Source: Escherichia phage phAPEC8
Direction: 5' to 3' (one strand)
Sequence record: NC_020079.1
Length of the DNA stretch: 64,000 nt
Every line of letters starts with the position of its first letter. Position 1 is the first letter of the stretch. The position numbers were made by a program, and so were the translations under genes. Positions 828-53,229 of this stretch are shown here, piece by piece. The notes below the pieces were generated by a model, which saw nothing but the letters and a program-made list of their open reading frames with translations, had not been told where the DNA came from and searched no databases.

Positions 828-2393
828 GTGTCAACAGGAAAAAGAACGTACACTAAAAAGTCAGAATACTGGGACAAAGGTGCTGCAAATAAAGCTGCTC
901 TCTCTCCAACAAAAGAGGCAGAGAAAGAGAAAACGTTACTCCTGTCACCTGAAATAGGAACGATCGGATTAAACTCAATCAAAGCATTTACGAATTTCAT
1001 GCAACCTTATGAGACTCGTTTCCCAGAATGTATTCGCACTTTTAAAGAGATGGGTGAAGACCCTGATGTAGCTACTGCTCTTGACGCTACATATATCTTT
1101 GTAGATAGAGCATTCTTTGATTTCAAGATAAAATACAATGTAAACTCGGCAAAGTCAAGAAAAGCTGCCAAGTTTATTGATTACATGTTACGCAATATGC
1201 AAGCCCCTCTACGTCAATATGTTAGATCACTTTTGACATATAAGCAATATGGTTTTGCATTCGCAGAGAAAGTTTATGAGTTGGATGAAGATCCTAAAAG
1301 TCCTTACTTTGGGTATTGGCGATTGACCAAATTGGCTTTTAGACCACAAGACACTCTTCACATGGCTCAACCTTTTACATATTCGGCAGACGGACGTTCT
1401 ATTCTATCTGTTAACCAGAATATCACCAATACGATGTTAGCTCCAGGTAATACAACTTTAGAAACTGGTATCAAAGAAATTCCTTTCAGTAAAGTTTTAT
1501 TTGTTGGTAGCAACATTACAGAGAATAACCCACTAGGAGTTAGTCCGCTTTTAGCTGTATATCGTAGCTGGCGTGAAAAATCTCTTATTCAGGAATTTGA
1601 GGTTATTGGGGTATCTAAAGATTTAGGCGGTATGCCAGTTCTCAAGGTTCCAAGTGACATTCTAAACAGGGCATCTTTAGATCCTGCTGGGGATGAAGCA
1701 CAATCTCTTCGAGTTCTCCAAGCCAACATCGCTAACCTGCACTCTGGTGAGCAAGCCTACATGGTATTGCCTTCAGACGTTTATGAAGGTACAGTGATGC
1801 GTCAATACGATCTTGTATTCCAAGGTGTTGATGGCACGGGTAAACAGTTTGACACTCAAGCGCTAATCAAACAACGCAAACTGGATATTTATAACCGTTT
1901 TGGTGCGGGTGTGTTGATTATGGGTGATGGTGATGCAGGAAGTTTTGCGCTTTCTGACAACAAACAAACACTATTGTCTCATTTTATTGAGCGAGATGTA
2001 GATATTGTTGTAGAAGCTATAAACTCTCAACTGATCCCTCAAACACTACGATTAAACAATATCTTCCTCTCTGATGAAGATATGCCTAAGTTTGTCAGTG
2101 GTGAAATGGGTGATCCTGATATTGAAGTAAATGCTAAAGCTATTCAGCAGTTGGTAGCCTCTGGTGCAATACCTTTAACCCCAGAAGTTATTAACGAGTT
2201 CCTTGAAAAAATTGGTTTTGAATATCGCATCCCTGATGATATTGTTGCCAACAAAGAGAAATTCTTTGAATTCATGGATAACTATATGCCTGACAAAACT
2301 TCACGATCAGGAGATGGTTTAGCTACAGCAGGAACTGGAACATCTGATAGCATTTCTGCTTTAGATCCTTCAGCACAAAACCTGTCGAATTAA
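828..2393 (+). CDS. portal protein (putative)
   Basis: 521-aa ORF with GTG start preceded by GGAGGA; position between terminase and head assembly genes and size fit a portal. No motif confirmation. Confidence 0.5.
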   Translation: MSTGKRTYTKKSEYWDKGAANKAALSPTKEAEKEKTLLLSPEIGTIGLNSIKAFTNFMQPYETRFPECIRTFKEMGEDPDVATALDATYIFVDRAFFDFKIKYNVNSAKSRKAAKFIDYMLRNMQAPLRQYVRSLLTYKQYGFAFAEKVYELDEDPKSPYFGYWRLTKLAFRPQDTLHMAQPFTYSADGRSILSVNQNITNTMLAPGNTTLETGIKEIPFSKVLFVGSNITENNPLGVSPLLAVYRSWREKSLIQEFEVIGVSKDLGGMPVLKVPSDILNRASLDPAGDEAQSLRVLQANIANLHSGEQAYMVLPSDVYEGTVMRQYDLVFQGVDGTGKQFDTQALIKQRKLDIYNRFGAGVLIMGDGDAGSFALSDNKQTLLSHFIERDVDIVVEAINSQLIPQTLRLNNIFLSDEDMPKFVSGEMGDPDIEVNAKAIQQLVASGAIPLTPEVINEFLEKIGFEYRIPDDIVANKEKFFEFMDNYMPDKTSRSGDGLATAGTGTSDSISALDPSAQNLSN

Positions 2394-2421
2394 AAATATT
2401 TAATATTTTTTAATTTTTCTA

Positions 2422-2450
2422 TTGACAAAACAACAAATATCCTGTAGACT
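2422..2450 (+). promoter_or_regulatory. sigma70-like promoter, TTGACA-N17-TAGACT with TG extended -10
   Basis: TTGACA 2422-2427, 17-nt spacer, TGTAGACT ending 2450; AT-rich intergenic region upstream of ORF 2487. Confidence 0.4.
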
Positions 2451-2486
2451 AAGATTTATGGGATATCTGTTTTTAAGAGGTTTCAA

Positions 2487-2966
2487 ATGGAACTCAATAA
2501 AGATACACTGTGGGAACTCTTCAAAACCTTCGCTGGTTTTAAAGAGAATTCTGAATCCCAACAAGATTCTATACCATCTCAAAAACCTGAAACTCTAGTC
2601 AAACAAAATAAATTTGATGAAGAAAAGATGCAGGTTATTGAGGTCTTGTATTGTCCACCTGAAGAAGACGATCTCCACGGAGAGCGCATGTCTGATTTGG
2701 AAATCAGGAAGATGGTTGACAACTTCAATGAGAATATTACCAACATTAGTGGTAATCTTGGTCACATGAAGAACACCGATAAGTTTTCTCCAATTAAAGC
2801 TTGGGTAAATGAAGTCGATTGTTACATTGGTGACGAACTCGTTGTGGAAGGAACTCCCCTCGTTAAAATCCAATTCAACGACCCTGAATTATATCAAGCT
2901 CGTAAAGACGGCGTTCTTAAAGGTTTGAGTATAGGCGCAATGGGCGTTAAAGTCAAGAAGGACTAA
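2487..2966 (+). CDS. head morphogenesis protein (function unresolved)
   Basis: 159-aa ORF between portal and scaffold-like gene, SD AAGAGG before ATG. Role (protease or assembly factor) not determinable from sequence alone. Confidence 0.35.
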   Translation: MELNKDTLWELFKTFAGFKENSESQQDSIPSQKPETLVKQNKFDEEKMQVIEVLYCPPEEDDLHGERMSDLEIRKMVDNFNENITNISGNLGHMKNTDKFSPIKAWVNEVDCYIGDELVVEGTPLVKIQFNDPELYQARKDGVLKGLSIGAMGVKVKKD

Positions 2967-2968
2967 TC

Positions 2969-4084
2969 GTGGCAAATACATATTTAACTAACGTAGACTT
3001 TTCAGGAAAAGCTACGGAAGAGTCACTAGGTGCTCATATTGCTTACACTTTTGATTTTCAAGGTGGAGCGGCATCTGGTTATAATACCCCCCTTTTATTT
3101 AAGTCAGACGGATCTCCAGACATAACTTTTGAAAAGTTAGAAGCTCTCACTAAAATGGGAGAAGATGTTACAGAGTTACGTAAAAGCTATATTCAACAAG
3201 TGATGGATCGCATTTCTGAAAAAGTGCGTGAAAAATTTGAAGCTGGTTGGGATTGGGTTTACGTTATTGATGCTGACTTCGATGCGAACGTTGCAATTTT
3301 CTGTTCAGATAACGGTATGTTCTCTGTTGGCTTTAAAGTTGACGGACTGAATGTTGAAGTTGAAGAGGTTGCTAAACCTGTTGTTCGTGTTACTGATTAT
3401 CAAGTTGTTGATGGTGATGTAATGATCTCCATTGATTTCTTTGAGGACGTTTTAGACGATGCTTTGAGTAATCTCGTTAAGAGTTCCTTGAAACAAAGTC
3501 AAGTTAAAGATTATTTAGTGAAAGCTCACGCTAAAGCTAATACAAACTCTGTGGATGCAGAGGCTAACCCCGCAGGTGATAAATCTGCAAACACAACTGG
3601 AATCAATAAAGGAGAAACCCCTTTGGAAAATATCAACAAAGAAGAATTCCTGAAATCTGCTGAATTCCAAGAACTGATGAAAGCACAGATTGCTGAAGCT
3701 GTAGAAAAAGCAGCAGCAGATGCACGTGCAGCCGCAGAACTTGAAGCACAGGAAAAAATCGCTAAGGCAGAACAGGAAGCAGAAGAACTTCGTAAAGCTG
3801 AACAAGCTCGTATCGAAGAAGAATATACAACTGTTGTTAAATCCTATTCTTTCGTAGAAGAAGACAAAGTTGAAGCTCTCGTTAAATATCTGGTAGACAA
3901 TAAAGATATCGCTGAAACTATCGTCAAAGCATTCGAAAAAGCACGTGCAGAAGTGGACGCAGTTAAGAAAGAATTTGGAACAGAACGTGGTGTTGACGTG
4001 ATCAATACTCAACCTGTAGCTAAATCTTCTTCTGAACTGATTAGTCAGAAAGCTGCTGAACTTAAAAAAGCCCAGAAACAATAA
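2969..4084 (+). CDS. scaffolding-like protein with Ala/Glu/Lys-rich coiled-coil C-terminal half
   Basis: 371 aa; C-terminal half is low-complexity, e.g. AEAVEKAAADARAAAELEAQEKIAKAEQEAEELRKAEQ, typical of scaffold proteins; located just upstream of decoration-like and major capsid genes. Confidence 0.45.
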   Translation: MANTYLTNVDFSGKATEESLGAHIAYTFDFQGGAASGYNTPLLFKSDGSPDITFEKLEALTKMGEDVTELRKSYIQQVMDRISEKVREKFEAGWDWVYVIDADFDANVAIFCSDNGMFSVGFKVDGLNVEVEEVAKPVVRVTDYQVVDGDVMISIDFFEDVLDDALSNLVKSSLKQSQVKDYLVKAHAKANTNSVDAEANPAGDKSANTTGINKGETPLENINKEEFLKSAEFQELMKAQIAEAVEKAAADARAAAELEAQEKIAKAEQEAEELRKAEQARIEEEYTTVVKSYSFVEEDKVEALVKYLVDNKDIAETIVKAFEKARAEVDAVKKEFGTERGVDVINTQPVAKSSSELISQKAAELKKAQKQ

Positions 4085-4103
4085 TCTTAGGAGATTAAAT
4101 TAA

Positions 4104-4502
4104 ATGGCTAAAGGAATTACTTTATCTAACTCTCGCCAGGAATTCGGACACCTGGTTCTGGGTGGAGTGTTTAGCTCTGACCTTGGACACTGTGTACGTG
4201 AAGTTAACCTGGTTAAAACAGCAACCATGAAAATTGGTTCTATCCTGAAAGCTGACAACACTGAAGCTGCTAAAGCTGAAGCTGCCGATGCTGCTAAAGT
4301 TCTGATTTGGACTGATGCTCTGTTCGGTATTGACGATGTAGCAGTAGGTGACACTTTCACCGCAGTTGTTGGCGTACGTGATCTTACTCTGAACCGCTTT
4401 GCAGTATACTACAAAGATGGCTCCCTGGTAGATGACGCTGGCGTAGCAGCACTGGAAACACATGATCTGAAACTGACCGAAAAAGTCGTTTTCACTTCTT
4501 AA
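4104..4502 (+). CDS. head decoration-like protein (gpD position)
   Basis: 132-aa ORF directly upstream of the major capsid gene; its initiation region TAGGAGATTAAATTAA-ATG is near-identical to that of the capsid gene, suggesting co-abundant expression. Confidence 0.4.
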   Translation: MAKGITLSNSRQEFGHLVLGGVFSSDLGHCVREVNLVKTATMKIGSILKADNTEAAKAEAADAAKVLIWTDALFGIDDVAVGDTFTAVVGVRDLTLNRFAVYYKDGSLVDDAGVAALETHDLKLTEKVVFTS

Positions 4503-4523
4503 TTTTAATAGGAGATTAATATA

Positions 4524-5525
4524 ATGCCAGCAGTAATTTTAGATCAGGTTGTAGATTTCAGCCCTATGATCGAACTTCAGGATTCCCCTGATACACTGAT
4601 TGCCAGCCTGAATCTGTTCAGTGTTGACTATCATTCAACTACCGCTATTGAAATCGGTAAAGAAAAAGCTGAAGATGCTCTGATCTCCGCTCGTGAGCGT
4701 GGTGGTGAGCGTAACTTCCTGACCATGAAAAATCCAGAACTGAAAGCGTTCCGCATTCCGTTCTTCCCTCTGGATAAAAACATCAAAGCTCAAGATATTC
4801 AATCTTTCCGTAGCTTTGCAATGGCAGGAATCAATGACTCTCTGCGCACAGACGCTGAAGTTGTTAACCGCTATATGTCCCAGATTCTGCGTGACGTAGC
4901 AAAAACCAAAGAGAAAATCTTTGCAGAAGCAGTTATGGGTCGTGCCTATAACGGCGTAGGTGGTGCAGCTAACTCTGCATACAACTGGTATACCGAATGG
5001 GGTGCTACCCAGAAATCTGTTGCTGTAGACTTTGCTTCTACCACTGTTTCTCCAGCAGCCACTATCGAACAAGAAGCTCGTGCTTACATCATCGATACTA
5101 AACAAGATGGCTCTACCGCTACCCGTATCGTAGCTCTGTGTTCTCGTGAATTTTTCGCATCTCTGGTTAACTCTCCGTTTGTTCGCCAGGCGTATCAGTA
5201 TTTCCAGGGAACTCCTAACCTTCTGCGTGACCGCCTTAGCGGTAACATGGATGTTCAGGTGTTCGAATGGAATGGTGTAACTTACATTGAAGATATCCAC
5301 GGTAACATCCCTGCTGGTGAAGCATATGTTCTGCCTATGGGTATCGAAGGTATGTTCCAGGCGCACTACGCTCCTGCGGATACTCCAGAACTGGCTAACA
5401 CCCAGGCTCGTGAACTGTATACCTTCATGATCAGCCAGCACCGCACTATTCAGCTTCAGTCTGAATTCTCGCTGCTCGCAGTTAACACCCGTCCAGAACT
5501 GGTAGTTAAACTGACTACGGCTTAA
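4524..5525 (+). CDS. major capsid protein, lambda gpE-like
   Basis: 333 aa; C-terminal region NTQARELYTFMISQ...ELVVKLTTA parallels the lambda gpE C-terminus (NTQARGLRTYG...EFVSVQLA, from memory); strong SD AGGAG; followed by an intrinsic terminator. Confidence 0.7.
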   Translation: MPAVILDQVVDFSPMIELQDSPDTLIASLNLFSVDYHSTTAIEIGKEKAEDALISARERGGERNFLTMKNPELKAFRIPFFPLDKNIKAQDIQSFRSFAMAGINDSLRTDAEVVNRYMSQILRDVAKTKEKIFAEAVMGRAYNGVGGAANSAYNWYTEWGATQKSVAVDFASTTVSPAATIEQEARAYIIDTKQDGSTATRIVALCSREFFASLVNSPFVRQAYQYFQGTPNLLRDRLSGNMDVQVFEWNGVTYIEDIHGNIPAGEAYVLPMGIEGMFQAHYAPADTPELANTQARELYTFMISQHRTIQLQSEFSLLAVNTRPELVVKLTTA

Positions 5526-5545
5526 TAGAACTCTGTTAATATTAG

Positions 5546-5579
5546 AGGCTCGTCCGTGATGGGCGAGCCTTTTCTGTTT
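5546..5579 (+). terminator. rho-independent terminator after major capsid gene
   Basis: Stem AGGCTCG(5546-5552)/CGAGCCT(5564-5570) with extra inner GC pairs, followed by TTTCTGTTT. Confidence 0.55.
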
Positions 5580-5609
5580 ACAATAAGAGTTTACAATGAG
5601 GAGATTGAT

Positions 5610-5954
5610 ATGTCAAACCCAGAATTGAAACGTTACTTTAGTTATCACGAAATGATTCGTGATTTCGAATCGCTTTCACCACTGATTGATGCTGATAAAA
5701 CATTAGTATCTGCGCCACCAATGTCTTTCTATCTGAAAGATGGTCGTATTGCATTAGGTGGAAACTTCATTCACTTCCTCACGCGTTTGAGAGAAGAAAC
5801 AGGTATTCTTGTGCATCCTTTTGCAAGTGAAGAACACATGGGTTACTATCTTGTGAGTTACGAAGACTATGCACCTGTAAAAATCAAAGAAGAAGTTTTA
5901 AAAGTAGAAGCGGTAGACACTCCAGCTAAAAAACGTTCCCTTCGTAAAAAATAA
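5610..5954 (+). CDS. hypothetical head-completion/connector protein
   Basis: Track ORF 5556..5954 begins inside the terminator hairpin; in-frame ATG at 5610 has SD GAGGAG (5598-5603) and gives a 114-aa product. Confidence 0.45.
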   Translation: MSNPELKRYFSYHEMIRDFESLSPLIDADKTLVSAPPMSFYLKDGRIALGGNFIHFLTRLREETGILVHPFASEEHMGYYLVSYEDYAPVKIKEEVLKVEAVDTPAKKRSLRKK

Positions 5955-5963
5955 GGTGGGCTT

Positions 5964-6512
5964 ATGCTGAATGCGGTAGAGTTGGCACCACTGATCCGAA
6001 TTCTTGTTTATAACCCTTCTCAAGAAGTATTGCCAGATGCAATGCTGATTCAGATCATCCAAACTTGGATTGATATTATAGGGAATGAAGATAAGGATAA
6101 GTGTGCAGTATTGTGGAACAGCTTGATTTCTGTTTTAGAGTATTTATGGAACAACGATGTTCTTAACAACAGTACTCAAACAGGGGGAGCTATGTCCCGC
6201 AGAGAAAAGATGGGTGAAGTCGAAGTTGAAGTTAAATTTAACAACGGTCAAATCACTTATAAGTCTCCGTGGGAAGATATCTATCATAACTATTTAAATG
6301 GTCTTATGGTCATTCCTGGGTGCACGGCAGGACGAGGAGCAACCAGTAAAGTTCTTATTGGTGGTGTTGATGCTCGTGAGATTGATCGAGTAAACAGCGA
6401 TCCTAACTCTGTAAATGGTCTTGGTAATGTTGCAAGTGTTGATCGTAATACACGCAACGTTAATTATTTGCGAAATTACGGACCTGTTTCTTTTTATCGT
6501 AGGGACAAATAA
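5964..6512 (+). CDS. hypothetical head-tail joining protein
   Basis: 182-aa ORF tightly packed in the head-to-tail gene block; SD AAGGTGG before ATG. Confidence 0.45.
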   Translation: MLNAVELAPLIRILVYNPSQEVLPDAMLIQIIQTWIDIIGNEDKDKCAVLWNSLISVLEYLWNNDVLNNSTQTGGAMSRREKMGEVEVEVKFNNGQITYKSPWEDIYHNYLNGLMVIPGCTAGRGATSKVLIGGVDAREIDRVNSDPNSVNGLGNVASVDRNTRNVNYLRNYGPVSFYRRDK

Positions 6513-15829: not shown

Positions 15830-16456
15830 ATGGGAATCCCTTTTGACTTAAAACTTGGACCAAACAACGACCTCATCATGGATGATGGGGATTTGGTCCT
15901 CACTACAACCAGAACAGAAATTGCAGCACAAACTCTTGGGATAACTCTGAACACGTATCGTGGGGAGTGGTTTTTAAATACTAACTTCGGTGTTCCTTAC
16001 TTACAAGAGATTATTGGTGTTGCTAGAAAGAAAGATATTGTAGACAGAATATTTTTAGCAGAGATTGCCAAAAACGTTTACATAGATACAATAAACAGTT
16101 ATAAATCTGCTTATGATATGGATCAACGTTATTACTCAATGACAGTTATGGTCACAGTTGGAGCAGATACAGTAACATCTATATTCAATACTCAACCTTC
16201 TGAAGAGTTTATTTACCCTGAAGCTGGTGAAGACAATGCAGCGATCATTTGTGAAGCTTACAGTATTGTTGAGAATTCGAATAGACTTTATCGCTTTATC
16301 AACTTTGTTGGTTTGCCACGTGATACCTACTCTACTTGGTGGAATGAATGGTCTACAGAGTCAGCAGTGGAAAGAATCATGGTTAACGAAAAAGGTGATG
16401 CATTAGCTACAAACAATAATTTCGGTATAACAGCTATGACAGGAGTAGAAGAGTAA
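15830..16456 (+). CDS. baseplate wedge protein, gp25/gpW-like (putative)
   Basis: 208 aa; N-terminal segment DLKLGPNNDL...TLGITLNTYRGEWFLNTNFGVPY resembles the GPW/gp25 signature. Confidence 0.4.
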   Translation: MGIPFDLKLGPNNDLIMDDGDLVLTTTRTEIAAQTLGITLNTYRGEWFLNTNFGVPYLQEIIGVARKKDIVDRIFLAEIAKNVYIDTINSYKSAYDMDQRYYSMTVMVTVGADTVTSIFNTQPSEEFIYPEAGEDNAAIICEAYSIVENSNRLYRFINFVGLPRDTYSTWWNEWSTESAVERIMVNEKGDALATNNNFGITAMTGVEE

Positions 16457-16929
16457 TGGCAGATTTAACTACGATCAAAATTTCTGATCTTACACAAACA
16501 ACCTCTGTGTCTGATACAGATTTCTTTGTAACAGATCAGGCTGGAATAACAAAGAAAACTTCTTTGAAAGTGCTGTTGAGTGGTGCAGGGGTAACTAGAA
16601 ACCGTTTAAATGCACGTGGAACAGTAACTAGCACCTTGGCATTAGATATTAGTTCAGCAGAATATTTTTCGGCAACTTTATCTTCTGCAACATGCACAAT
16701 TAGTTTTACTAATATTCCAGTAGCAACAAATGCAGTTTTAAACTTTACTTTAGCTTTGCGTCAAGGAAGTGGTGCAAATAAAGTTGTATGGCCTTCTTCT
16801 GTAAAATGGAGTTTTGGTCGTTCCCCAGTTTTGAGTTATCGTCAAGGTGCAACAGACACTTTTGAGTTTATCAGTTATGATAATGGTGCAACTTGGACAG
16901 GTAGCTTAGTTTTAGCAGGAGTTATTTAA
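16456..16929 (+). CDS. hypothetical baseplate protein
   Basis: 157-aa ORF; start overlaps the preceding stop (ATGG junction). Confidence 0.45.
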   Translation: MADLTTIKISDLTQTTSVSDTDFFVTDQAGITKKTSLKVLLSGAGVTRNRLNARGTVTSTLALDISSAEYFSATLSSATCTISFTNIPVATNAVLNFTLALRQGSGANKVVWPSSVKWSFGRSPVLSYRQGATDTFEFISYDNGATWTGSLVLAGVI

Positions 16930-21967: not shown

Positions 21968-21975
21968 GAGTAAAA

Positions 21976-24741
21976 ATGTCAACTACAATTACTAATTTAC
22001 CCGAAACATCAAAAGTTAATGGTTCTGATTACCTGGTTTTAGATCAACCTGATAAGACTGTTAAAAGCACAGTTTCCAACTTTCTTACTGACACTGGGGT
22101 GGTTTTAGCCACCCAGCTAAAAGATACTTCTGGAGCTACCAAGTATCCAGAACTTCAAATGTCACGTTGGAGAGATGAAGGTGATCCTAGAGGATGGGGA
22201 GCAGTAGGTGACGGAGCAACAGACGATACTAATGCCATAACACAGCTTCTTGCTGCTATGCCTGATGGATGGATTGTTGATGGGCGTAATCTCACTTTCA
22301 AGGTTACAACACTACCAGATATAAGCAAGTTTAAAAACGCTGCTTTTGTTTACGAGCGTATTGTTGGACAACCCCTTACTTACGTATCTGAGGGTTTCTT
22401 TGATGGAAATCTGACAAAAATTACGGATACACCATTTTACAATGCTTGGACGCAAGATAAGACGTTTGTTTATGACAATGTTATATATGCACCATTTATG
22501 GCTGGCGAACGTCATGGTGTACAAAACCTCCATGTAGCGTGGGTTAAATCAGGAGATGATGGACAAACTTGGTCTATGCCAGAATGGTTAACTCCAATTC
22601 ATCCTGATTATAATGCCTCTTCAGCAAACAAAGTTAACTATCATTGTATGAGTATGGGTGTATGTGGTAATCGCTTATATGCGGTGATCGAAACCCGTTA
22701 CTTATCTAACATGCGATTGAAGAAAGCAGAACTTTGGTCACGTCCAATGCCTTATTATAGAAGGCCAACTGGAGGCATAACAATTAGTTCTGGGTCTACT
22801 ACAGCGACAATTGTTTTAGAAAAGCATGGTCTTAAAGTTGGAGATGCTGTTAACTTTTCCAATTCAGGTGCAACTGGCGTATCTGGAAATATGACTGTTG
22901 CATCTGTAATTAACAAGGATACATTTACTGTTACATTAGCGAGTGCTGCCACATCTAATATAGATAATACAGGAACTACTTGGCATTTTGGAACACGTTT
23001 CTGGGATAGCCCTTGGGAAATTACAGAATTACCAGATGTTGCCTATTCTACTAATGCAGATTTATGTGTTACAGAAACCCATAGTTTTACAGTTATAGAT
23101 GATGATAATTACACTTTTGCTGTTGGTTATCACAATGGTGATGTTTCCCCAAGAAGATTAGGTATTTTGTATTTCAATAATGCTTACTCTGACCCAAGTT
23201 CTTTTACTCGTAGAACAATTAGTCAAGAATATGCTGACAATGCAGCAGAACCCTGCATTAAATATTATGATGGAATTTTATATTTAACTACCAGGGGTAC
23301 TTCAACTTCTGCTGCTGGTTCTACATTAGCAATGAGTACCGACCTTGGAGAAAACTGGAACTACTTAAGATTCCCTAACAACGTTCATCATACAAACTTA
23401 CCATTTGCAAAAGTTGGTAACTACCTTTATATCTTTGGTACAGAACGTTCATTCGGAGAATGGGAAGGAGAAGAACTAGATAATAGATATAAAGGCACGT
23501 ATCCTCGAACGTTTATGTGCAAGATTAATGTATCTTCATGGCCTACATCTTTATCCGATGTTCAATGGTTTAATATCACTGATCAGATGTATCAAGGGCA
23601 TATTGTTAATTCTGCATGTGGTGTTGGTTCGGTATGTGTTAAAGATGGTTGGTTATATTATATCTTTGGAGGCGAAGATTTCTTATCTCCTTGGTCTATT
23701 GGGGATAATAGTAAAAAATTATGGTACAAGCATGATGGTCATCCAGCCGATTTATATAGTTATAGACTAAAGATTACCGAACATGATTTTGTATCACGTG
23801 ATTTCAAATATGGAGCTACGCCAAACCGTACATTGCCTGTATCTATGGGTACAGATGGGGTAAGGCATGTCTCAGCCCCTGTAACTTTTGATAATGATGT
23901 ACAAGTATACTCTTTAACAGTTACTGGCCTTGAGCATGATGGGACACAACAATCTGCCGTTAGAATAAAATTAGATGGTGATTATGGGGTTGTTGCAAAA
24001 AATGTCCCAATAAAAAATCCTTCTAAACAGCGACTAATCCTATGTGGAGGAGAAACTCCTTACGTTACTGATGGATCGCTATTACAACTATATGGTTCAA
24101 ACCATACGTATCCAAACAGAGCAGTTTTATATGCCCCAGGAGGAGCATATACCCAAAATAATTTCATGCCGTATTTAGATGGACAAGTTGCATTAGGCGG
24201 TGCGTCTAACAGATGGTCAGAAGTGTACGCATCTACAGGAACCATTAATACTTCAGATGGAACATTAAAAACTAAACCTACAGAGATTGAAGATATTTTA
24301 CTGAAAGCATGGGAAGATATTCATGTAATCTCTTACCAATGGCTTAGTGCTGTCGCGGAGAAAGGAGATTCTGCGCGTATTCATTTTGGTGTTATAGCTC
24401 AAGATGTAAGAGATATTCTGATTAATTATGGCTTAATGGATGAAAATAGCACTGATTGTAAGTATGCTTTTCTGTGTTATGATGAATACCCTGCTATGTA
24501 CGATAGTGTTGTTACGGGACAAAAAGAAATCCCTTTATTTGATGATGAAGGGAATGTTGTAATTGATGAAGAAGGTAATCCAGTAACAATCGTAGAAGAT
24601 GTTGTAGAAACTATCGAAATAATTCCAGCAGGATCGCGATGGGGTATCCGCGCTGACCAAATGTTTTTTATTGAGATGGCTTATCAACGTAAAAAGTTAA
24701 AAGCTCTTGAAGAAAGACTTGCAACCCTGGAAAGTAAATAA
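21976..24741 (+). CDS. endosialidase-like tailspike with C-terminal intramolecular chaperone (peptidase S74-type)
   Basis: 921 aa; WGAVGDGATDDTNAIT motif, Asp-box repeats (SGDDGQTW, STDLGENW), and a C-terminus (HFGVIAQDV...SRWGIRADQMFFIEMAYQRKKLKALEERLATLESK) typical of the self-cleaving chaperone domain of endosialidases and L-shaped fibres. Confidence 0.6.
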   Translation: MSTTITNLPETSKVNGSDYLVLDQPDKTVKSTVSNFLTDTGVVLATQLKDTSGATKYPELQMSRWRDEGDPRGWGAVGDGATDDTNAITQLLAAMPDGWIVDGRNLTFKVTTLPDISKFKNAAFVYERIVGQPLTYVSEGFFDGNLTKITDTPFYNAWTQDKTFVYDNVIYAPFMAGERHGVQNLHVAWVKSGDDGQTWSMPEWLTPIHPDYNASSANKVNYHCMSMGVCGNRLYAVIETRYLSNMRLKKAELWSRPMPYYRRPTGGITISSGSTTATIVLEKHGLKVGDAVNFSNSGATGVSGNMTVASVINKDTFTVTLASAATSNIDNTGTTWHFGTRFWDSPWEITELPDVAYSTNADLCVTETHSFTVIDDDNYTFAVGYHNGDVSPRRLGILYFNNAYSDPSSFTRRTISQEYADNAAEPCIKYYDGILYLTTRGTSTSAAGSTLAMSTDLGENWNYLRFPNNVHHTNLPFAKVGNYLYIFGTERSFGEWEGEELDNRYKGTYPRTFMCKINVSSWPTSLSDVQWFNITDQMYQGHIVNSACGVGSVCVKDGWLYYIFGGEDFLSPWSIGDNSKKLWYKHDGHPADLYSYRLKITEHDFVSRDFKYGATPNRTLPVSMGTDGVRHVSAPVTFDNDVQVYSLTVTGLEHDGTQQSAVRIKLDGDYGVVAKNVPIKNPSKQRLILCGGETPYVTDGSLLQLYGSNHTYPNRAVLYAPGGAYTQNNFMPYLDGQVALGGASNRWSEVYASTGTINTSDGTLKTKPTEIEDILLKAWEDIHVISYQWLSAVAEKGDSARIHFGVIAQDVRDILINYGLMDENSTDCKYAFLCYDEYPAMYDSVVTGQKEIPLFDDEGNVVIDEEGNPVTIVEDVVETIEIIPAGSRWGIRADQMFFIEMAYQRKKLKALEERLATLESK

Positions 24742-24789
24742 TACAGCTTAGGTGGTATTTCAATCTTTATATCCCACTTAGAGGTACTC

Positions 24790-25053
24790 ATGGCTAAAGA
24801 GAAAAATGGTTTTAAAAAATTTATTCGCGGAATGTTCTGCACTTACCCCGGCAACGGGGTAAGCTCTACGAAAGTCTGGAACGCTGTAGGCATGTCTGTT
24901 ATGACAGGCATGTTTATCTTTTTAGGAATAGAAAAAGAAATTCCTGAATGGATGGGCTGGGCTTTTGTTTTCATGATAACCCCTTCTCGCCTCATGAAAA
25001 ATCTTATTGATTTACGTTGGGGCAGATCACAATCTACCAAAGAGGATGACTAA
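24790..25053 (+). CDS. small two-TM membrane protein (holin-like topology)
   Basis: 87 aa; two hydrophobic helices (VWNAVGMSVMTGMFIFLGI, WMGWAFVFMITP) and a charged C-terminus; embedded between tailspike and baseplate genes. Confidence 0.4.
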   Translation: MAKEKNGFKKFIRGMFCTYPGNGVSSTKVWNAVGMSVMTGMFIFLGIEKEIPEWMGWAFVFMITPSRLMKNLIDLRWGRSQSTKEDD

Positions 25054-28243: not shown

Positions 28244-28789
28244 ATGATATTTACAAACTTTAAAAAATATATTCCTGAAGACCCTGAACTAAAAGAATTG
28301 GTAGAAGCAGAGAACATTCTTTTTCTTCGTTGCGATCAAGGTTACGACTGGTATGATTTACGTAGCACAGAATTCAATAACGATAAAATGAAAGTCGTTT
28401 TTGATGATCAAAATCGTATTGTGTTTTGGAATACTGATCCTACACTACTTTGCCCTGAAGATCTTTCTATAGCACAAGTAGATTTTAATATAGATACTTT
28501 TGAGGATATTAGGAACAAGGTTCTGGATTTAGAAACCTTAACTCTTAAGGATAAAGAGTATTCCCGTGAAGAGTTGATGACACAAGCTAGTGCAAAAATT
28601 CGCTCTTTACAAGAAACAGCGGTAGCACTTATAACACCTTTACAGTATGCTAAAGATTTAGAAATGGCTACTGAAGACGAATTAGCTTATCTTAAAAATC
28701 TTCAAGTTTATGTAGTTAAACTAAATCGTGTTCCGCTTCAAAAAGACTATCCTTACGCTATAGATTGGCCTACATTACCGACAGAATAA
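28244..28789 (+). CDS. tail fibre assembly protein (Tfa/gpG-like)
   Basis: 181 aa; C-terminus AYLKNLQVYVVKLNRVPLQKDYPYAIDWPTLPTE matches the conserved Tfa ending (W..YR..LNRVD...P.I.WP..P). Confidence 0.6.
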   Translation: MIFTNFKKYIPEDPELKELVEAENILFLRCDQGYDWYDLRSTEFNNDKMKVVFDDQNRIVFWNTDPTLLCPEDLSIAQVDFNIDTFEDIRNKVLDLETLTLKDKEYSREELMTQASAKIRSLQETAVALITPLQYAKDLEMATEDELAYLKNLQVYVVKLNRVPLQKDYPYAIDWPTLPTE

Positions 28790-28798
28790 GGGATCACT

Positions 28799-29134
28799 AT
28801 GGAATTTCAAGAAGCATGGGGACTTGCAAAGGATGCAATAATCCCTTTAATCGGAGTCATCTGGTTCTTTTTCAAACAAAAAATGGATAAATTCGGCTCT
28901 GATCTTGAGGAAATGGAGGAGAAAAGTCGAGAGCTAGAGAAGAAGTTGGTCTTTGTTGAATCAACTTACGCAACTAAAGCCGAACTTACCCAGATGCTAA
29001 ATCAAATTAACTCTACATTAATGGCAAATAACAACACCCTTGAGCAAAAAATTGAAAAGATTATGGACCTCAAGAATGCGACTATCCAAATGATGCTAGA
29101 TGACATAGTTAAACGTACACAGAATAAGGGGTAA
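28799..29134 (+). CDS. small protein with N-terminal TM helix and coiled coil
   Basis: 111 aa; hydrophobic IIPLIGVIWFFF followed by charged helical region; function unknown. Confidence 0.4.
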   Translation: MEFQEAWGLAKDAIIPLIGVIWFFFKQKMDKFGSDLEEMEEKSRELEKKLVFVESTYATKAELTQMLNQINSTLMANNNTLEQKIEKIMDLKNATIQMMLDDIVKRTQNKG

Positions 29135-29137
29135 TTA

Positions 29138-32100
29138 ATGGCAACATTCCCAACATATCCAGCAACGTCTCTCGAACAGGGCGTAGACCTGGTTATTTTC
29201 TCATCTAACCAACTCCATGATGTTATTAATGGAAGTGCTACAGAGAGTATTGAAACAGAATCAGGGTTGATACCAACCCTGAGAAAAGCCCTTGTTGACA
29301 ACTTTTTCTTTAAAAGTCCATTAGATTGGGCGCAAGGCACAAACGAAACAGTTTTTAACCAACTTCGTTATTTCCAGAACGGGGTGTTGAGTGGTTATTA
29401 CTATGCGCCTAACGCTACACTGGTAAACCCAATTCCTATGCAAGGGACTCCAGTAGGAGATAACAACTGGGTATTGTGGGGACTGAAGACAGAACAACTA
29501 GCAACAGAAGTCACCCCTTGGGTATATTCTGGTGCAACTGGTTATGAAACAGTAATCAGTCCTCCCTACATCTTTGATAGTGCTATTGTTACGATCAATG
29601 GTGTTATTCAGGTTCTGGGAGAAGCTTTCCGCATAGAAGATAGTAAAATCATCTTATCTGAACCTTTGGGACACGATCCTGCAACAGGACTGCCAAACAA
29701 ACTTTTTGCCTATATTGGTAAAATCGTAGCTTCCGCAGATACAGATCCTAACTTAGAAAACCGTCTTGTCAGTTTAGAAACAAAAACTGAAGAACTGACA
29801 GAAAGCATGGATAAAGTACCTTTACAAACTATTGCTCGTAAATACGGTTTGTTGGATGATGAAGTAGCTTACGCAACAGCGGGTCAATCGTTAACAGGGA
29901 TTAAAGCTCTGTATGATCCAGTAGCACAATCTTCCTACACATTGCCTCCTAACATCACAGGGACTTTAACATCCTTGTCTGTTTCTGGAGTAATGACTTA
30001 TTCTGGCGGATCTGTAGATCTTTCTGCATTGGCTGTTGAACGTGGACAGTTTGTTCATTTGCCTACAAGCTTTGGTAATAACGTAACTCTGACAGCTAAA
30101 AATCAGACGATTGGACGTGGTGCTGGTCGTTATCGTTGGGCTGGGAGTTTACCAAAAAGTATTTTGGCCTCAGATACATTGGAGACAAGCGGTGGATTAG
30201 GTCCAAATGCATGGGTTCTGACCAATACAGAAGGACTGTTAACCCCTCGTGGTGGAACATACAACGATTTATTCGATGTTGTCTACTTATCAGAATTTGC
30301 TAACAACACAACAACATATACCACACCAGAAGCAGCTTTCCAAGCGGCACTGTTAGCAGCAAAAGCTTCGAAAAGCAAGATTCTCGATGCTTACGGTTGC
30401 GATATGACTTTCACGACAAGCTCTTTTGATATTCAAGGTATCACTTTGCGTGGGGGTGTGTTCCGTGGTCAACGCGACTATCGTGTGCAAAATGCTACAG
30501 TAGAAGGCACAACTTTCCGTAACTCTCGTGTTATGTATTGGGGTGGTGCTGTGCGCATGTTCGATTGTTTGTGGGACGGTGCTCCTCGCGCAGGTCAAGT
30601 TGGTAGCTTGGTATTCCAAGGCAACCCAATATCAGGTACTTTTGAAATTGATAACTGTACTTTTAAAAACGGGTTGTATGGCATCCTTCAACAAGGAACA
30701 GGGGAACCAGTAACACGTGGTGTCTTCCGTAACCTTACCTTCATGGACATGCAAGGTGATGCAATAGAACTGAACGTCATCAATAAACATTATGACGATG
30801 GTTGTGTGATTGAGAATATTTACCTGTCTAATATCGATGGGACTAACGCTCCTATTCCTCTGTCCAACTGGGGTATCGGTATCGGTGTAGCTGGTAAAGG
30901 ACCATATGGTTACGGAATCCCTGATGATCAATATTGCAAGAATATTACAATTCGTAACGTTTTTGCAAAACGTTGTCGTCAGATTGTCCACGTAGAAGTT
31001 GGTCGTAATATCTCTATCGAAAACATTCATGGCGATCCAGACCAGACCGTATCTGTTGGGACAGGTTTGGCAACTGGCGCAGTTGTAATGTATGGAAGTA
31101 AAGATTTTACGATTGACGGTGTTTACGGAGAGCCTAAAACAGACGGTAGCACACTTGCAAGTAATATCCGTATGATTTATTTGGAGTGGGGAACTAACGC
31201 AGTTCTGGACGAAGAGGGTAATCCGGTAGTTCCGGCACAGGGTAGACCTTCAAACCCATGCTTTAACTATTCTGTTCGTAATATTCACACCAAAACTGGG
31301 CGTGTTTTTGCAGGAGTTTCCGCTGGGCCAGGTTATGAAAACAGAGTTAGCTTTGAAAATATTCGTTGCGCTGCATTGCAGTTATTCGGTATAGCTTCTT
31401 GGCTTTCAATGTCTAACATCACCTGTAATATCTTCGATTGTGTTGGTCAACCTGAATCTGGTCCAGGGACATTTTATGATGGATTCTTCCGTAGAGAAAA
31501 ATCTGTTCTTGAAATGGTTAACGTGAACTGTTACCCAGATGGCAAGACGATGGTTACTGGTCGTCCACAGTGGAGCCGTTGCCGTTACTCGGATATTCAT
31601 CGTGTCAATTGTAATGTTGAAGCTAATATGTATACCAATATCGCAGGTGGTATTGGAGCTATTGTAGGGACAACGGGCAAAGTTTATTACTTAGAGCCTA
31701 ATCCTAGTCGAAACATTGATGGAATGCATTTCCCAACAGGGAAAGAGTTTGACAAAGGTGATATGATAGTCAAGGCGGATAATACGTTCTTCCTTGTAAC
31801 AACAAGTGGGGCATATATTCCAGATATCCCAGCTTTCGGTATTCGAGCTACACAGGCAGGAGATACCTTCCTGACACAGAACTTGACTCCTAACGGGACA
31901 GCAACAAATGCTTCTTGGTTGTATCATTACCCTCTGTCAGCAGGGACACGTATCCGTATTCCTGGCGCTGGTGTAGGTGGAGCAGATTTGGACACAGTTA
32001 TTACTCGTGCACCTTATCAAGATAATGATACGTGGACTAACCCAGTTAAAATAGACATTGCAGATCCAATTGTAACGCCTACAAGTGCTGGAGTTAGAAT

Positions 32101-32191
32101 TAAAACCATACCTAATGATTCCAGTAATGTTTCTGTAGGTAATACTGCGGTTATTCGCCCAACGCCAGTAGTAGATGTGCCAACAACCTAA
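29138..32191 (+). CDS. tailspike protein with right-handed beta-helix (pectate-lyase-like) domain
   Basis: 1017 aa; repeated beta-helix rungs (NCTFKNGLYGILQQG..., NLTFMDMQGDAIELNV..., NITIRNVFAKRC..., NISIENIHGD...) typical of polysaccharide depolymerase tailspikes. Confidence 0.6.
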   Translation: MATFPTYPATSLEQGVDLVIFSSNQLHDVINGSATESIETESGLIPTLRKALVDNFFFKSPLDWAQGTNETVFNQLRYFQNGVLSGYYYAPNATLVNPIPMQGTPVGDNNWVLWGLKTEQLATEVTPWVYSGATGYETVISPPYIFDSAIVTINGVIQVLGEAFRIEDSKIILSEPLGHDPATGLPNKLFAYIGKIVASADTDPNLENRLVSLETKTEELTESMDKVPLQTIARKYGLLDDEVAYATAGQSLTGIKALYDPVAQSSYTLPPNITGTLTSLSVSGVMTYSGGSVDLSALAVERGQFVHLPTSFGNNVTLTAKNQTIGRGAGRYRWAGSLPKSILASDTLETSGGLGPNAWVLTNTEGLLTPRGGTYNDLFDVVYLSEFANNTTTYTTPEAAFQAALLAAKASKSKILDAYGCDMTFTTSSFDIQGITLRGGVFRGQRDYRVQNATVEGTTFRNSRVMYWGGAVRMFDCLWDGAPRAGQVGSLVFQGNPISGTFEIDNCTFKNGLYGILQQGTGEPVTRGVFRNLTFMDMQGDAIELNVINKHYDDGCVIENIYLSNIDGTNAPIPLSNWGIGIGVAGKGPYGYGIPDDQYCKNITIRNVFAKRCRQIVHVEVGRNISIENIHGDPDQTVSVGTGLATGAVVMYGSKDFTIDGVYGEPKTDGSTLASNIRMIYLEWGTNAVLDEEGNPVVPAQGRPSNPCFNYSVRNIHTKTGRVFAGVSAGPGYENRVSFENIRCAALQLFGIASWLSMSNITCNIFDCVGQPESGPGTFYDGFFRREKSVLEMVNVNCYPDGKTMVTGRPQWSRCRYSDIHRVNCNVEANMYTNIAGGIGAIVGTTGKVYYLEPNPSRNIDGMHFPTGKEFDKGDMIVKADNTFFLVTTSGAYIPDIPAFGIRATQAGDTFLTQNLTPNGTATNASWLYHYPLSAGTRIRIPGAGVGGADLDTVITRAPYQDNDTWTNPVKIDIADPIVTPTSAGVRIKTIPNDSSNVSVGNTAVIRPTPVVDVPTT

Positions 32192-37058: not shown

Positions 37059-37946
37059 TTAGAATGGGATATCATCGTCGAAGTCCATTGGAGGTTCTTC
37101 TTGATTGCTTGGAGTTGGTTCTGGTTGTGGTTCAGGTTTCTTCTCTTCTTTCTTCTCTTCTTTCTTAGGTTGTTCTGCGGAACCACGAATGGCAGCAGCA
37201 ACTTTATCAGACAGAGCCAGAACTTTACGAGCAGAGTCAATCAGATCTTCTACAGATACAGTCTTAATGGTATGGTCTTTACAAGCATTGAGAATAGCGT
37301 GACCAACAGATGCCCCAAGATCATAATCATTAATATCAACGCCACGAGATTCAGCAATTTCAGATTTCAGCGTGACAGTTGCAGATTGAACAACCCCAGC
37401 GATATCGAAAGCATCGCCTTTAACACCATTACGAATCAGTTCCAGTGCACCATTTACTGCGTGACCAGTTTCCAGACCTACAGTATCACGTTTTTTATAG
37501 GACTGCTTAGGAGCAGCATCGTTGGAACCTTTATTGCCAGAAGATTTGTTAGACTTCTGAACACCATCGGTAGACAATACTGTAATACGAGATTTTTTAG
37601 TATTGTAGTAAGTCTTACCGCCTTTATTATCAACGCGATCAATATCAATACTTACTTCTACACCTTTTTCAATAGTGATCCAATTATCACCTTCTTTGAC
37701 TTGCAGGTTTTCATAACCTTCTTTCAGTTCAATGTCACCAAGAGAAATCCAAACACCTTTCTCATCTGGTTTAGCACCTTTCTCTTTCAGAACAAGAGAA
37801 GCTCGGTGAGTTGAAACAATCGTTTTCCCTTCCCAATGAAAAGTTTTAGGTTCAGCGAATTTATCCAGTTTAACGTAGTCTACGATACCAGTTGCATAAG
37901 TTACGGTTTTGCCTTTACGATCAGTTTCAGTATTAATTACGGACAT
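37059..37946 (-). CDS. ssb: single-stranded DNA-binding protein with E. coli SSB-type C-terminal tip
   Basis: 295 aa; C-terminus ...SNQEEPPMDFDDDIPF matches the acidic protein-interaction tip of E. coli SSB (PMDFDDDIPF, from memory); disordered Lys/Glu/Pro-rich linker precedes it. Confidence 0.6.
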   Translation of the reverse strand: MSVINTETDRKGKTVTYATGIVDYVKLDKFAEPKTFHWEGKTIVSTHRASLVLKEKGAKPDEKGVWISLGDIELKEGYENLQVKEGDNWITIEKGVEVSIDIDRVDNKGGKTYYNTKKSRITVLSTDGVQKSNKSSGNKGSNDAAPKQSYKKRDTVGLETGHAVNGALELIRNGVKGDAFDIAGVVQSATVTLKSEIAESRGVDINDYDLGASVGHAILNACKDHTIKTVSVEDLIDSARKVLALSDKVAAAIRGSAEQPKKEEKKEEKKPEPQPEPTPSNQEEPPMDFDDDIPF

Positions 37947-38994: not shown

Positions 38995-39205
38995 TGATAC
39001 GCTCCACAGTTACTTTTACAACATCGTCCATATTAATCTCATCCCCCAAGACCTCAATAACACCTTCCTCATAAAGTCGAGCACATTCTTCCCACACTTC
39101 AGCTTCCGTCATTCCACCTGCAATCTTATTTGCAAGACCTTTAATAACATCTTCATTTTGTTCATCAACAAGAATTGAAACATTAAAGCTCACTAATTTA
39201 CGCAT
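38987..39205 (-). CDS. hypothetical small acidic protein
   Basis: 72-aa ORF; start overlaps the stop of the upstream gene. Confidence 0.4.
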   Translation of the reverse strand: MRKLVSFNVSILVDEQNEDVIKGLANKIAGGMTEAEVWEECARLYEEGVIEVLGDEINMDDVVKVTVERIND

Positions 39206-39215
39206 TGTTTTCTCC

Positions 39216-39368
39216 TTATACTTCTAAACGGAAAGTTTCTTTAGATACAAAATCGTATCCACCTTTTTCAAGCCAATCGTTGTAAACCTCATCGGCTTGA
39301 GACTCTATCATAAAATACCGAGTGGTAACTTCGTCTCCGACAATACGCACAATTTTATAGCAAATCAT
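39216..39368 (-). CDS. hypothetical small protein (50 aa, below ORF-track cutoff)
   Basis: Hand-translated ATG..TAA ORF (MICYKIVRIVGDEVTTRYFMIESQADEVYNDWLEKGGYDFVSKETFRLEV) filling an otherwise empty intergenic gap; weak SD. Confidence 0.3.
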   Translation of the reverse strand: MICYKIVRIVGDEVTTRYFMIESQADEVYNDWLEKGGYDFVSKETFRLEV

Positions 39369-39382
39369 GATACCATTTCCCA

Positions 39383-39574
39383 TTAATCTTCCTCCAGATC
39401 AATTTCATTATAACAATGTATACAGAAACCATCATTGTGCATATGTTGTTCATAAGACATATCTTTACCACAAGACCAACAACGGATATCCCCATCGTCC
39501 CATTCACGTTCTTCTTCACCTTCAAATTCATCTGGTAGGTAAGGCATACCAAAATAATCTAAATCGTAACTCAT
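39383..39574 (-). CDS. small acidic Cys-rich (zinc-ribbon-like) protein
   Basis: Track ORF 39383..39679 overlaps the polymerase 3' end; internal ATG at 39574 has SD AGGAG and gives a 63-aa product with CWSCG...CIHC. Confidence 0.4.
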   Translation of the reverse strand: MSYDLDYFGMPYLPDEFEGEEEREWDDGDIRCWSCGKDMSYEQHMHNDGFCIHCYNEIDLEED

Positions 39575-39587
39575 ATCTTCTCCTATA

Positions 39588-39605
39588 AAGGGGCAGAAGC
39601 CCCTT
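39588..39605 (-). other. GC-rich stem-loop between polymerase and small downstream gene
   Basis: Perfect 7-bp stem AAGGGGC/GCCCCTT with 4-nt loop; lacks a U-tract, so more likely a processing/stability element than a terminator. Confidence 0.35.
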
Positions 39606-39623
39606 ATAAAACAATACGTTAGA

Positions 39624-43024: not shown

Positions 43025-43456
43025 TTAGTTGTTAGCGAACTCAATAGTGAGGTCAACTTTACCATCGTCAGAAATAACCATGTTTTTGGTATTTTTAAAG
43101 ATGATATCTACTTTACCTTCACTTACACGACAGAATGCAACACCATCTGCAACTTTATCGATATAATATTTGTAAGAAAGAATACCCACTTTACTACGAC
43201 CAGCACCTTTTGTGAAAGAAGGGCTTACATCGAAACGGAAACCTTTAGAAGAAACAACACGGTAAGAACGTCCAGTTGGAAGATGTTCAATAACAGAGAC
43301 ATTATTCTCAACAACTTTTACAGCAAACTCTTCAGGATGATCCTCAACAATCATATGTGGGATGGCAAATGCCAACGCTTGTTTGTGTTTAATAACACCA
43401 GCACCCAGAGCACCAGCAGCTTTAACTTTTGCATTCAGATCGATTGTCATACGCAT
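43025..43456 (-). CDS. hypothetical protein
   Basis: 143-aa ORF with SD GAGGAG and its own consensus promoter upstream. Confidence 0.5.
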   Translation of the reverse strand: MRMTIDLNAKVKAAGALGAGVIKHKQALAFAIPHMIVEDHPEEFAVKVVENNVSVIEHLPTGRSYRVVSSKGFRFDVSPSFTKGAGRSKVGILSYKYYIDKVADGVAFCRVSEGKVDIIFKNTKNMVISDDGKVDLTIEFANN

Positions 43457-45327: not shown

Positions 45328-45339
45328 TTTGTTCTCCTG

Positions 45340-45618
45340 TTAAAATGGTTCGTTAGTCTCCATCATATATTCTGCTTCTAGTTCTTCCATATGCTTTCTA
45401 AATTGGAAAGCAATTTCTGCTACAGTTACATTTAAATCTTTTTCAAAAACTTCTGTAGAGCCTTCATAAAAACGAATACCGTCAATTAAAAGCCCTCCGT
45501 GGTAATCCCAATCACTTTCACGAGAAAGCGGGTTAGGCTCTTCATAATAGTAATCCACCTCCACGACTAAAGCTTTCCCGTTACGAGCGGTGTATTCAAA
45601 ATCAAAAGTGTTAATCAT
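45340..45618 (-). CDS. hypothetical protein
   Basis: 92-aa ORF between the primase-helicase and glycosyltransferase genes. Confidence 0.45.
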   Translation of the reverse strand: MINTFDFEYTARNGKALVVEVDYYYEEPNPLSRESDWDYHGGLLIDGIRFYEGSTEVFEKDLNVTVAEIAFQFRKHMEELEAEYMMETNEPF

Positions 45619-46562: not shown

Positions 46563-46569
46563 ACTTCAC

Positions 46570-52831: not shown

Positions 52832-53229
52832 TACAAACCCTCCTTCAGATTATCAAGAGCTACAGTGGTTTCACAAAATTCTCCATAAGCTTTATGATGT
52901 TCCAGAAAAGCTTCGGGTCCACCCCAGTCATTATCTTGTGTATTCCAGCCATCAATAAAAGCATCTTCAATGATTGTGATCAGTTCCTGTCGAGTCAACG
53001 TAATGGTATCAGGTTTCTGCGTAGTTTCCACACGGAACCCTGGTTCTTCATAAAAACCTTTAGTTACAATGGATTCTAACTCTTCTGCATCACAGAGGAA
53101 GTAGCCACAAAGATAACACCCACCGTCATCATCTTTCATTACTTCATAAACTTCACCACTTGCTAACTTGATGAAAAGAGTAGGGTCTGTTACTGTAAGT
53201 TTTAAAAGAATACCTGTTGGATTATACAT
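52831..53229 (-). CDS. hypothetical protein
   Basis: 132-aa ORF; ATG overlaps the 3' end of the small acidic ORF upstream. Confidence 0.45.
   Translation of the reverse strand: MYNPTGILLKLTVTDPTLFIKLASGEVYEVMKDDDGGCYLCGYFLCDAEELESIVTKGFYEEPGFRVETTQKPDTITLTRQELITIIEDAFIDGWNTQDNDWGGPEAFLEHHKAYGEFCETTVALDNLKEGL

Follow-up and report, generated by a model that had tools for sequence, protein, structure and literature searches.

The window, the 64-kb stretch of the Escherichia phage phAPEC8 genome that we analysed, shares 99.9% identity with Escherichia phage vB_EcoM_UP17 and some 60 further Phapecoctavirus genomes (phAPEC8-like phages of the Stephanstirmvirinae) and 81% identity with phage phi92. 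The genes here run in the order terminase, portal (Portal_Mu), XkdF-type protease, scaffold, a 132-amino-acid (aa) ORF, a 333-aa ORF, head-completion and neck genes, and tail sheath. The prohead protease gene (positions 2487 to 2966, plus strand; Pfam Peptidase_S78_2, E = 1.4e-11) is the first of a protease-scaffold-decoration-capsid block that has the same gene order in relatives. A putative scaffold gene follows on the plus strand at 2969 to 4084; it matches phrog_2970, is called a potential scaffold protein in phi92 and others, and has a codon adaptation index (CAI) of 0.424, rank 6 of 68. The TAA stop codon of this gene (4082 to 4084) lies 19 nucleotides (nt) upstream of the ATG of the 132-aa ORF (4104 to 4502, plus strand), and a gap of 21 nt separates the latter from the 333-aa ORF (4524 to 5525, plus strand). 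Both ORFs are thus on the same strand with very short gaps, and neither a promoter nor a terminator intervenes. Nineteen nt past the stop of the 333-aa ORF, at 5544 to 5582 on the plus strand, is a terminator-like hairpin with a 13-bp stem, seven pairs of which are G-C, followed by a T-run; terminators are annotated at the equivalent place in phages FBKp34 and phiTE. This hairpin probably forms the 3′ end of an abundant late head transcript. On the plus strand from 2969 to 5525 we found no terminator-like site save a weak 5-bp stem inside the 333-aa ORF. The synteny, with protease and scaffold genes upstream and the capsid gene directly downstream of the decoration gene, is kept in 13 relatives from GenBank and about 30 from IMG/VR.

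The 132-aa ORF encodes the head decoration protein, and the 333-aa ORF encodes the major capsid protein (MCP). The MCP is of the lambda gpE/HK97 fold, belongs to Pfam Phage_cap_E (E = 1e-36), and has counterparts in phi92 gp124 (PDB 21uy) and the phiTE MCP (PDB 9cul). The 132-aa protein, of the trimeric beta-tulip type, matches the "head decoration" family phrog_2680 (E = 1.9e-43) and, over its full length, the phi92 gp123 chain 21uy_E (E = 1.8e-71). It also matches the phiTE "head stabilization/decoration protein" DEC (PDB 9cul and 9mjn), with E = 6.8e-8 for the single sequence and E = 2.4e-48 for a profile. We modeled the protein with AlphaFold2 (pLDDT 84, pTM 0.78) and searched the model with Foldseek. 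The DEC chains of the mature phiTE capsid were recovered with E = 8e-11 and TM scores of 0.70 to 0.75, the decoration proteins of Bas63 and Sf14 with E = 1e-5 to 1e-6, and the YSD1 decoration protein and lambda gpD weakly (E = 0.047, TM 0.44 to 0.51). Pfam returned no family for the protein at E ≤ 0.1, including the lambda gpD family HDPD (PF02924). The link to lambda gpD is at the level of the predicted fold only. The first-pass annotation had argued for a decoration protein from the ribosome-binding context that this gene shares with the capsid gene. The assignment is correct, but what establishes it is phrog_2680, phi92 gp123, and the match of the AlphaFold model to phiTE DEC, not the Shine-Dalgarno (SD) argument.

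Both assignments were already known: they stand in dozens of GenBank records, and orthologues are part of solved capsid structures. Virion proteomics, stoichiometry and capsid cryo-EM, which the first-pass annotation had proposed as checks, are available for orthologues and homologues. The PVP-SE1 homologue ties the 132-aa ORF to rV5 gp61, and rV5 gp61 (decoration) and gp60 (capsid) were detected in virions at peptide coverages of 85% and 83%, respectively (PMC3606486), so that orthologues of the protein are indeed present in purified virions. The phiTE capsid is a T=13 shell with 13 MCP and 13 DEC per asymmetric unit; DEC, a trimeric beta-tulip protein, occupies its 3-fold and quasi-3-fold axes, and mass spectrometry of the virion ranks MCP, DEC, sheath, and tube in decreasing abundance (PMC11972413). 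Entries 9cul and 9mjn together hold 793 DEC chains and 788 MCP chains, and 21uy, in which phi92 gp123 is present, has three gp123 chains and one gp124 chain. By analogy with these homologues, the decoration protein of the window would sit on the mature capsid as trimers, at about 1:1 with the MCP. Our literature search found no publication describing PDB 21uy and no virion proteomics for a Phapecoctavirus.

The regions in front of the two genes are nearly identical, as the first-pass annotation had observed, and the strings match as it quoted them: aataatcTTAGGAGATTAAATTAA upstream of the ATG at 4104 and ttttaaTAGGAGATTAATATA upstream of the ATG at 4524. An exact 11-mer, TAGGAGATTAA, is present at 4088 to 4098 and at 4509 to 4519, 5 to 6 nt upstream of the ATGs. 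It begins 1 base 5′ of the SD core and extends 5 nt beyond it, and a direct-repeat search scored the pair as an ungapped 16-nt direct repeat with 14 of 16 positions identical. The decoration-gene start region, TAGGAGATTAAATTAA (4088 to 4103, plus strand), consists of an AGGAG core at 4089 to 4093 and a 10-nt pure A/T spacer that directly abuts the ATG. The capsid-gene start region, TAGGAGATTAATATA (4509 to 4523, plus strand), begins 6 nt past the decoration-gene stop codon and has its AGGAG core at 4510 to 4514, with a 9-nt pure A/T spacer, again abutting the ATG. Each of the two intergenic spacers therefore reads as a TAA stop, a few A/T bases, AGGAG, and a pure A/T stretch. Both sites stand out for an A/T content that few start regions of the window exceed (0.80 and 0.85) and for lying in true noncoding spacers. 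The ATGs themselves are the true starts; the solved phi92 chains of gp123 and gp124 align from residue 1. In most respects the sites resemble the canonical E. coli SD region, with a 5-nt AGGAG, an ATG, an A/U-rich and weakly structured context, and gaps short enough to allow coupling, but their 9- to 10-nt spacing is near the upper limit of what is usual. There is no third copy of TAGGAGATTAA on either strand of the window. The shorter AGGAGATT is also found 5′ of the next gene after the capsid gene, at 5599 to 5606.

We then asked how unusual this likeness is. Dinucleotide shuffles give an expectation of 0.03 copies of TAGGAGATTAA in the window, a statistic that makes the likeness look rarer than it is, since the sequence at translation start sites is constrained. 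We discarded this null and replaced it with an all-pairs survey and a conditional simulation. Start regions were taken for 68 to 69 genes of the window, with start positions taken over from the annotation of UP17; in the variable tail-fibre region, a few genes were dropped or re-called. Among the 2278 pairs that 68 start regions form, seven share at least an 11-mer and three share a 12-mer, which places the decoration/capsid pair within the top 0.3% of the window's start-region pairs without making it unique. Adjacent genes make up two of these seven top pairs. When AGGAG was fixed in both members of a simulated pair, a shared run of at least 11 nt arose with a probability of 4.5% under the A/T-rich composition of the pair itself and 0.4% under the general composition of start regions. 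Since the pair was picked by eye among about 70 genes, its likeness offers little support for more than shared constraint. The common sequence is ordinary and no more than mildly unusual, and it does not prove the gene assignments.

The first-pass annotation also described this SD context as strong. Complementarity to 16S rRNA at a functional distance is present at both sites (10 and 9 nt before the ATG), and the duplex energy of AGGAG with the 16S 3′ tail is −7.3 kcal/mol at both genes. Across the window the median is −8.4 kcal/mol (range, −3.7 to −13.3), and 40 of 69 genes have a site stronger than AGGAG, so the two sites fall below what is typical of this genome. Many of the genes that pair better are small and nonstructural. 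SD strength is uncorrelated with codon adaptation (Spearman rho = −0.03), and two further genes with very abundant products, sheath and tube, begin from quite different sites, aacAGGAGcataa and aaaGAGGAtctata. Opening the RNA from −20 to +15 is predicted to cost 4.4 kcal/mol at the capsid gene, which ranks 8 of 69, and 10.0 kcal/mol at the decoration gene (rank 47); on this thermodynamic estimate, the capsid site would be the stronger one in isolation. An identical core hence does not imply an identical predicted initiation rate. Both start regions are predicted to fold into weak A-U hairpins with the SD partly in the loop. That of the capsid gene is less structured than 200 of 200 shuffles (z = +2.2), and that of the decoration gene does not differ from its shuffles (z = −0.34). 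We considered a structured RNA element at the two sites and, with such weak folding, propose none; an Rfam scan of 2300 to 6200 at E ≤ 1 returned no match.

Codon usage is better evidence of matched high expression than SD likeness. With CAIs of 0.583 and 0.574, the decoration and capsid genes rank first and second among 68 genes whose median is 0.26; scaffold and sheath trail at 0.42. The CAI weights are those of Sharp & Li 1987 for E. coli, and measures that need no reference set agree with the CAI. The decoration gene has an effective number of codons of 36.1 and the capsid gene one of 36.3 (median, 44.9). On the first axis of a principal-component analysis of relative synonymous codon usage, which takes up 24% of the variance and is loaded by CGT, CTG, TCT, GCT, and GGT, the two genes are adjacent at the optimised extreme. 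The idea that the two genes are matched for high expression is accordingly borne out by their near-equal codon bias, and it gains nothing from the SD sequence that they share.

Known systems give the same picture. In phi92 (a Justusliebigvirus), gp123 and gp124 are orthologous to the two proteins, with 87 to 88% identity for the decoration protein and 90% for the capsid protein. Gene order and the 21-nt gap are as in the window, both start regions share AGGAGATTTA, and the GenBank record lists "rbs motif: AGGAG" on both genes and names gp123 a "potential decoration protein". The phi92 sites differ in having ATTTA in place of the window's ATTAA and in spacers that are each shorter by 1 nt. In phiTE (a Certrevirus), a homologous DEC gene immediately precedes a homologous gpE-type MCP gene that is followed by a terminator, although this DEC is 149 aa long, with an insertion and a C-terminal extension. 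The phiTE start regions, tctGGAGAACCTGACAA-ATG and aacAGGAGATATTTAA-ATG, have GGAGA alone in common. Phage lambda likewise has its decoration gene directly 5′ of a Phage_cap_E capsid gene and after protease and scaffold genes. Lambda gpD is a trimeric beta-tulip protein present at about 1:1 with gpE, yet it has no detectable sequence similarity to the 132-aa protein, the D and E start regions are unlike (TAAGGGATGTTT-ATG versus GGGATTTTTTT-ATG), and there is a hairpin between the genes. Because the sites of phiTE and lambda are unlike, likeness of start regions is neither required for nor diagnostic of a 1:1 decoration protein. Unlike sites in front of the same gene pair are also found in PVP-SE1 and Av-05. 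Together with the differing opening costs, this removes the shared SD as proof of matched translation.

We gathered 28 distinct pairs of decoration and capsid start regions from GenBank and IMG/VR relatives. In six Stephanstirmvirinae of 75 to 86% nucleotide identity, AGGAGATT is unchanged before both genes. The longest run shared within one phage is 8 to 11 nt in most of the core Stephanstirmvirinae and 6 nt in one of them (L018). The longest of all, 14 nt, belongs to Aeromonas phage 2L372D and its kin. In FBKp34, Av-05, PVP-SE1, GAP31-like phages, CR8, phiTE, and several uncultured lineages, the shared run is 3 to 7 nt, essentially the SD core; outside the core Stephanstirmvirinae, conservation of the motif does not reach beyond the SD core. 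In four distant GC-rich relatives (L050 to L053), the protein encoded upstream is larger and of another kind and the start regions are unlike, which makes these genomes uninformative.

We think it likely that these are two ordinary, independently acting SD start regions in the short A/T-rich spacers of a late head operon. This operon would comprise the protease, scaffold, decoration protein, major capsid protein, and terminator. The decoration protein presumably coats the gpE-type capsid protein 1:1, so that both would be needed in very large, roughly equal amounts, and both start regions may therefore have arrived at one simple design: a stop codon, some A/T bases, AGGAG, and a 9- to 10-nt A/U-only spacer that would hold the site open. 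The 11-nt identity would then be a by-product of shared constraint in a two-letter alphabet and of inheritance within the subfamily, with no function of its own. Output is probably governed more by the shared transcript, by termination-reinitiation coupling, and by extreme codon optimisation. Across gaps of 19 and 21 nt, ribosomes that terminate at the upstream stop codons could unfold the RNA and might then start again on the following cistron. Against simple convergence, two twinned cases among about a dozen deep lineages are more than a naive chance model gives. We take this as a modest hint that decoration and capsid start regions grow alike more often than random pairs do. Convergence accounts for much of the hint, because both genes are the most highly expressed and both spacers are free and A/T-rich.

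The alternative is that the two regions are twins, kept alike by selection or by short-patch copying as a hard-wired 1:1 device; we regard this as unlikely. Such a device would have arisen at least twice, in the core Stephanstirmvirinae (AGGAGATT[A/T]A) and in the Aeromonas Plateaulakevirus (TCGGAGTTAAAATA), and elsewhere it would have been lost or never adopted. Selection by itself, which would preserve the likeness so that equal ribosome loading yields 1:1 synthesis for a T=13 shell, seems to us rather improbable. The 1:1 stoichiometry of the phiTE homologue and the near-equal codon bias of the two genes are what this explanation would predict, and so is the Aeromonas pair, an independent twin pair of different sequence: its shared 14-mer is unlike the motif of the window, and of the 2926 start-region pairs in 50 kb of that genome, it is among the two most alike. 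Most deep lineages that carry the same gene pair are nonetheless untwinned, including phiTE, whose ratio was measured as 13:13, and lambda is untwinned as well. The opening costs of the two sites, moreover, differ by 5.6 kcal/mol. For the 28 unique pairs, similarity within a phage exceeds that across phages (7.04 versus 6.20, permutation p = 0.001), but this test is confounded by clade structure, and its signal is carried wholly by two clades, so we do not treat it as proof. The fourth spacer base, which separates ATTAA from ATTTA, is A at both sites in the clade of the window and in L019, and T at both sites in phi92, Tr1, and FKP3, states that would fit co-selection; in one relative, L017, the two sites are discordant. 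On a neighbour-joining tree this amounts to two concordant lineages and one discordant lineage, and the concordance is not significant, given that each site has just two likely states and the events number three or four.

Copying, in which micro-duplication or short-patch gene conversion replaced one intergenic cassette with a copy of the other, would make the likeness a matter of homology, with or without benefit to the phage. The Aeromonas pair argues for it most directly. Its two regions, AATAAT-CGGAGTTAAAATA-ATG and AATAATTCGGAGTTAAAATAA-ATG, are identical at 21 of 22 positions with one indel, across nearly the whole spacer and including a C outside the SD (TCGGAGTTAAAATA), which would be hard to reach by convergence. 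A related genome, L047, has a capsid start region of the Aeromonas type and an unrelated decoration start region; compared with 2L372D, it looks as if one site was overwritten or converged upon in one lineage, a pattern that fits overwriting of the decoration site. In the window itself the identity does run from 1 base before the SD core to 5 nt past it, but it spans just 11 nt, fades immediately on both flanks, and is too short for ordinary homologous recombination. The decoration region AGGAGATT(A/T)AA is found in the Vequintavirinae Av-05 and PVP-SE1 as well, where the capsid regions differ; for this reason we consider the decoration start region old and not recently copied. Copying as the origin of the likeness is accordingly quite improbable in our view.

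A shared operator, at which a trans-acting repressor or activator or a GGAG-cutting endoribonuclease like T4 RegB would co-regulate both cistrons, is very hard to credit: the 11-mer is exclusive to the two sites and AGGAGATT also precedes the next gene, but two copies of the 11-mer and three AGGAGATT start regions do not amount to a repeated cis-element that is over-represented and conserved beyond the SD core, the motif is not kept outside the core subfamily, its conserved part is the SD core and A/T alone, the decoration start region has no significant structure, nothing in Rfam matches, and we found no candidate factor.

Two ordinary start regions thus remain our preferred reading, and beyond a tidy annotation it has little consequence, as the genes and their structures were already known. 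The lesson is methodological. Similar SD contexts say little about function or stoichiometry, because the sites of most genes in this phage are at least as strong and because the 1:1 partners of phiTE and lambda have unlike ones; better guides are codon bias and homology to solved virions. If the two start regions did prove to be true twins, a device used more than once to balance synthesis, they would be a neat and easily testable case of stoichiometry encoded in intercistronic sequence, and could guide the design of synthetic operons.

A strong terminator-like hairpin lies within 5544-5612, 19 nt 3′ of the stop codon of the major capsid gene (4524-5525, +), with a 13-bp stem containing 7 G-C pairs and a T-run. 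For the ORF that follows the capsid gene, the longest or annotated start (GTG 5556 or ATG 5559) falls within the stem, and the PHROG match starts at residue 19. ATG 5610 is therefore probably the true start. This codon is preceded by gAGGAGATTgat; if it is used, AGGAGATT is present in three start regions in succession.

Look-alike start regions are also found in Aeromonas phage 2L372D, a relative with the same decoration/capsid gene pair. Its two start regions (1570-1600 and 1975-2005 in L009, a stretch of relatives' DNA, as is L055, which also carries them) are identical at 21/22 positions and share the 14-mer TCGGAGTTAAAATA. The pair ranks in the top 2 when all 2926 start-region pairs in 50 kb of that genome are compared. 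Its sequence is unrelated to the motif of the window. A further adjacent pair among the most alike start regions of the window belongs to the tail-fibre region: the neighbouring genes 28799-29134 and 29138-32191 share the 12-mer ACAGAATAAGGG, which takes in the stop codon of the upstream gene, in their start regions (28777-28798 and 29116-29137). In the start region (53396-53417) of a small gene (53222-53395, -), a tandem GAGGAGGAGGAGGAG purine run provides several overlapping SD registers.

The head module has only two sizeable intergenic gaps, terminase/portal and portal/protease, and each holds one sigma-70-like promoter: TTGACA-17-TATTAT at 730-758 (11/12 match) and TTGACA-17-TAGACT at 2422-2450 (10/12 match), respectively. 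The total count of such hits across the region does not exceed shuffle expectation. ORF 2487-2966 has a Pfam match to Peptidase_S78_2 (XkdF prohead protease). Its product is named "DNA methyltransferase" (phrog_1530) in many RefSeq and PHROG-derived records, and its match to phrog_1530 is confined to the profile's C-terminal half. The label is probably a propagated misannotation.

Compared with UP17 (Escherichia phage vB_EcoM_UP17, 99.9% identical), indels or replacements occur at about 15830-16460, 21970-25050, 39200-39620, 45330-47500, and 52830-53600; these are typical host-range cassette swaps. One of them is the tailspike ORF 21976-24741, which encodes 921 aa, versus 688 aa in UP17. GenBank records >99% identical to 2400-5600 bear the labels Campylobacter phage B15, Acinetobacter phage ABPW7, Klebsiella phage ZCKP1, and Dompiswa phage TSP7_1; some of the hosts named are questionable for a coliphage genus.

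Three non-structural genes, 50088-50690 (-), 37059-37946 (-), and 43025-43456 (-), almost match the capsid genes in codon optimization (CAI, 0.50-0.54). They encode a TerD-domain protein, a protein whose C-terminal tail is SSB-like, and one of unknown function; all three are presumably early or middle products made at very high levels.
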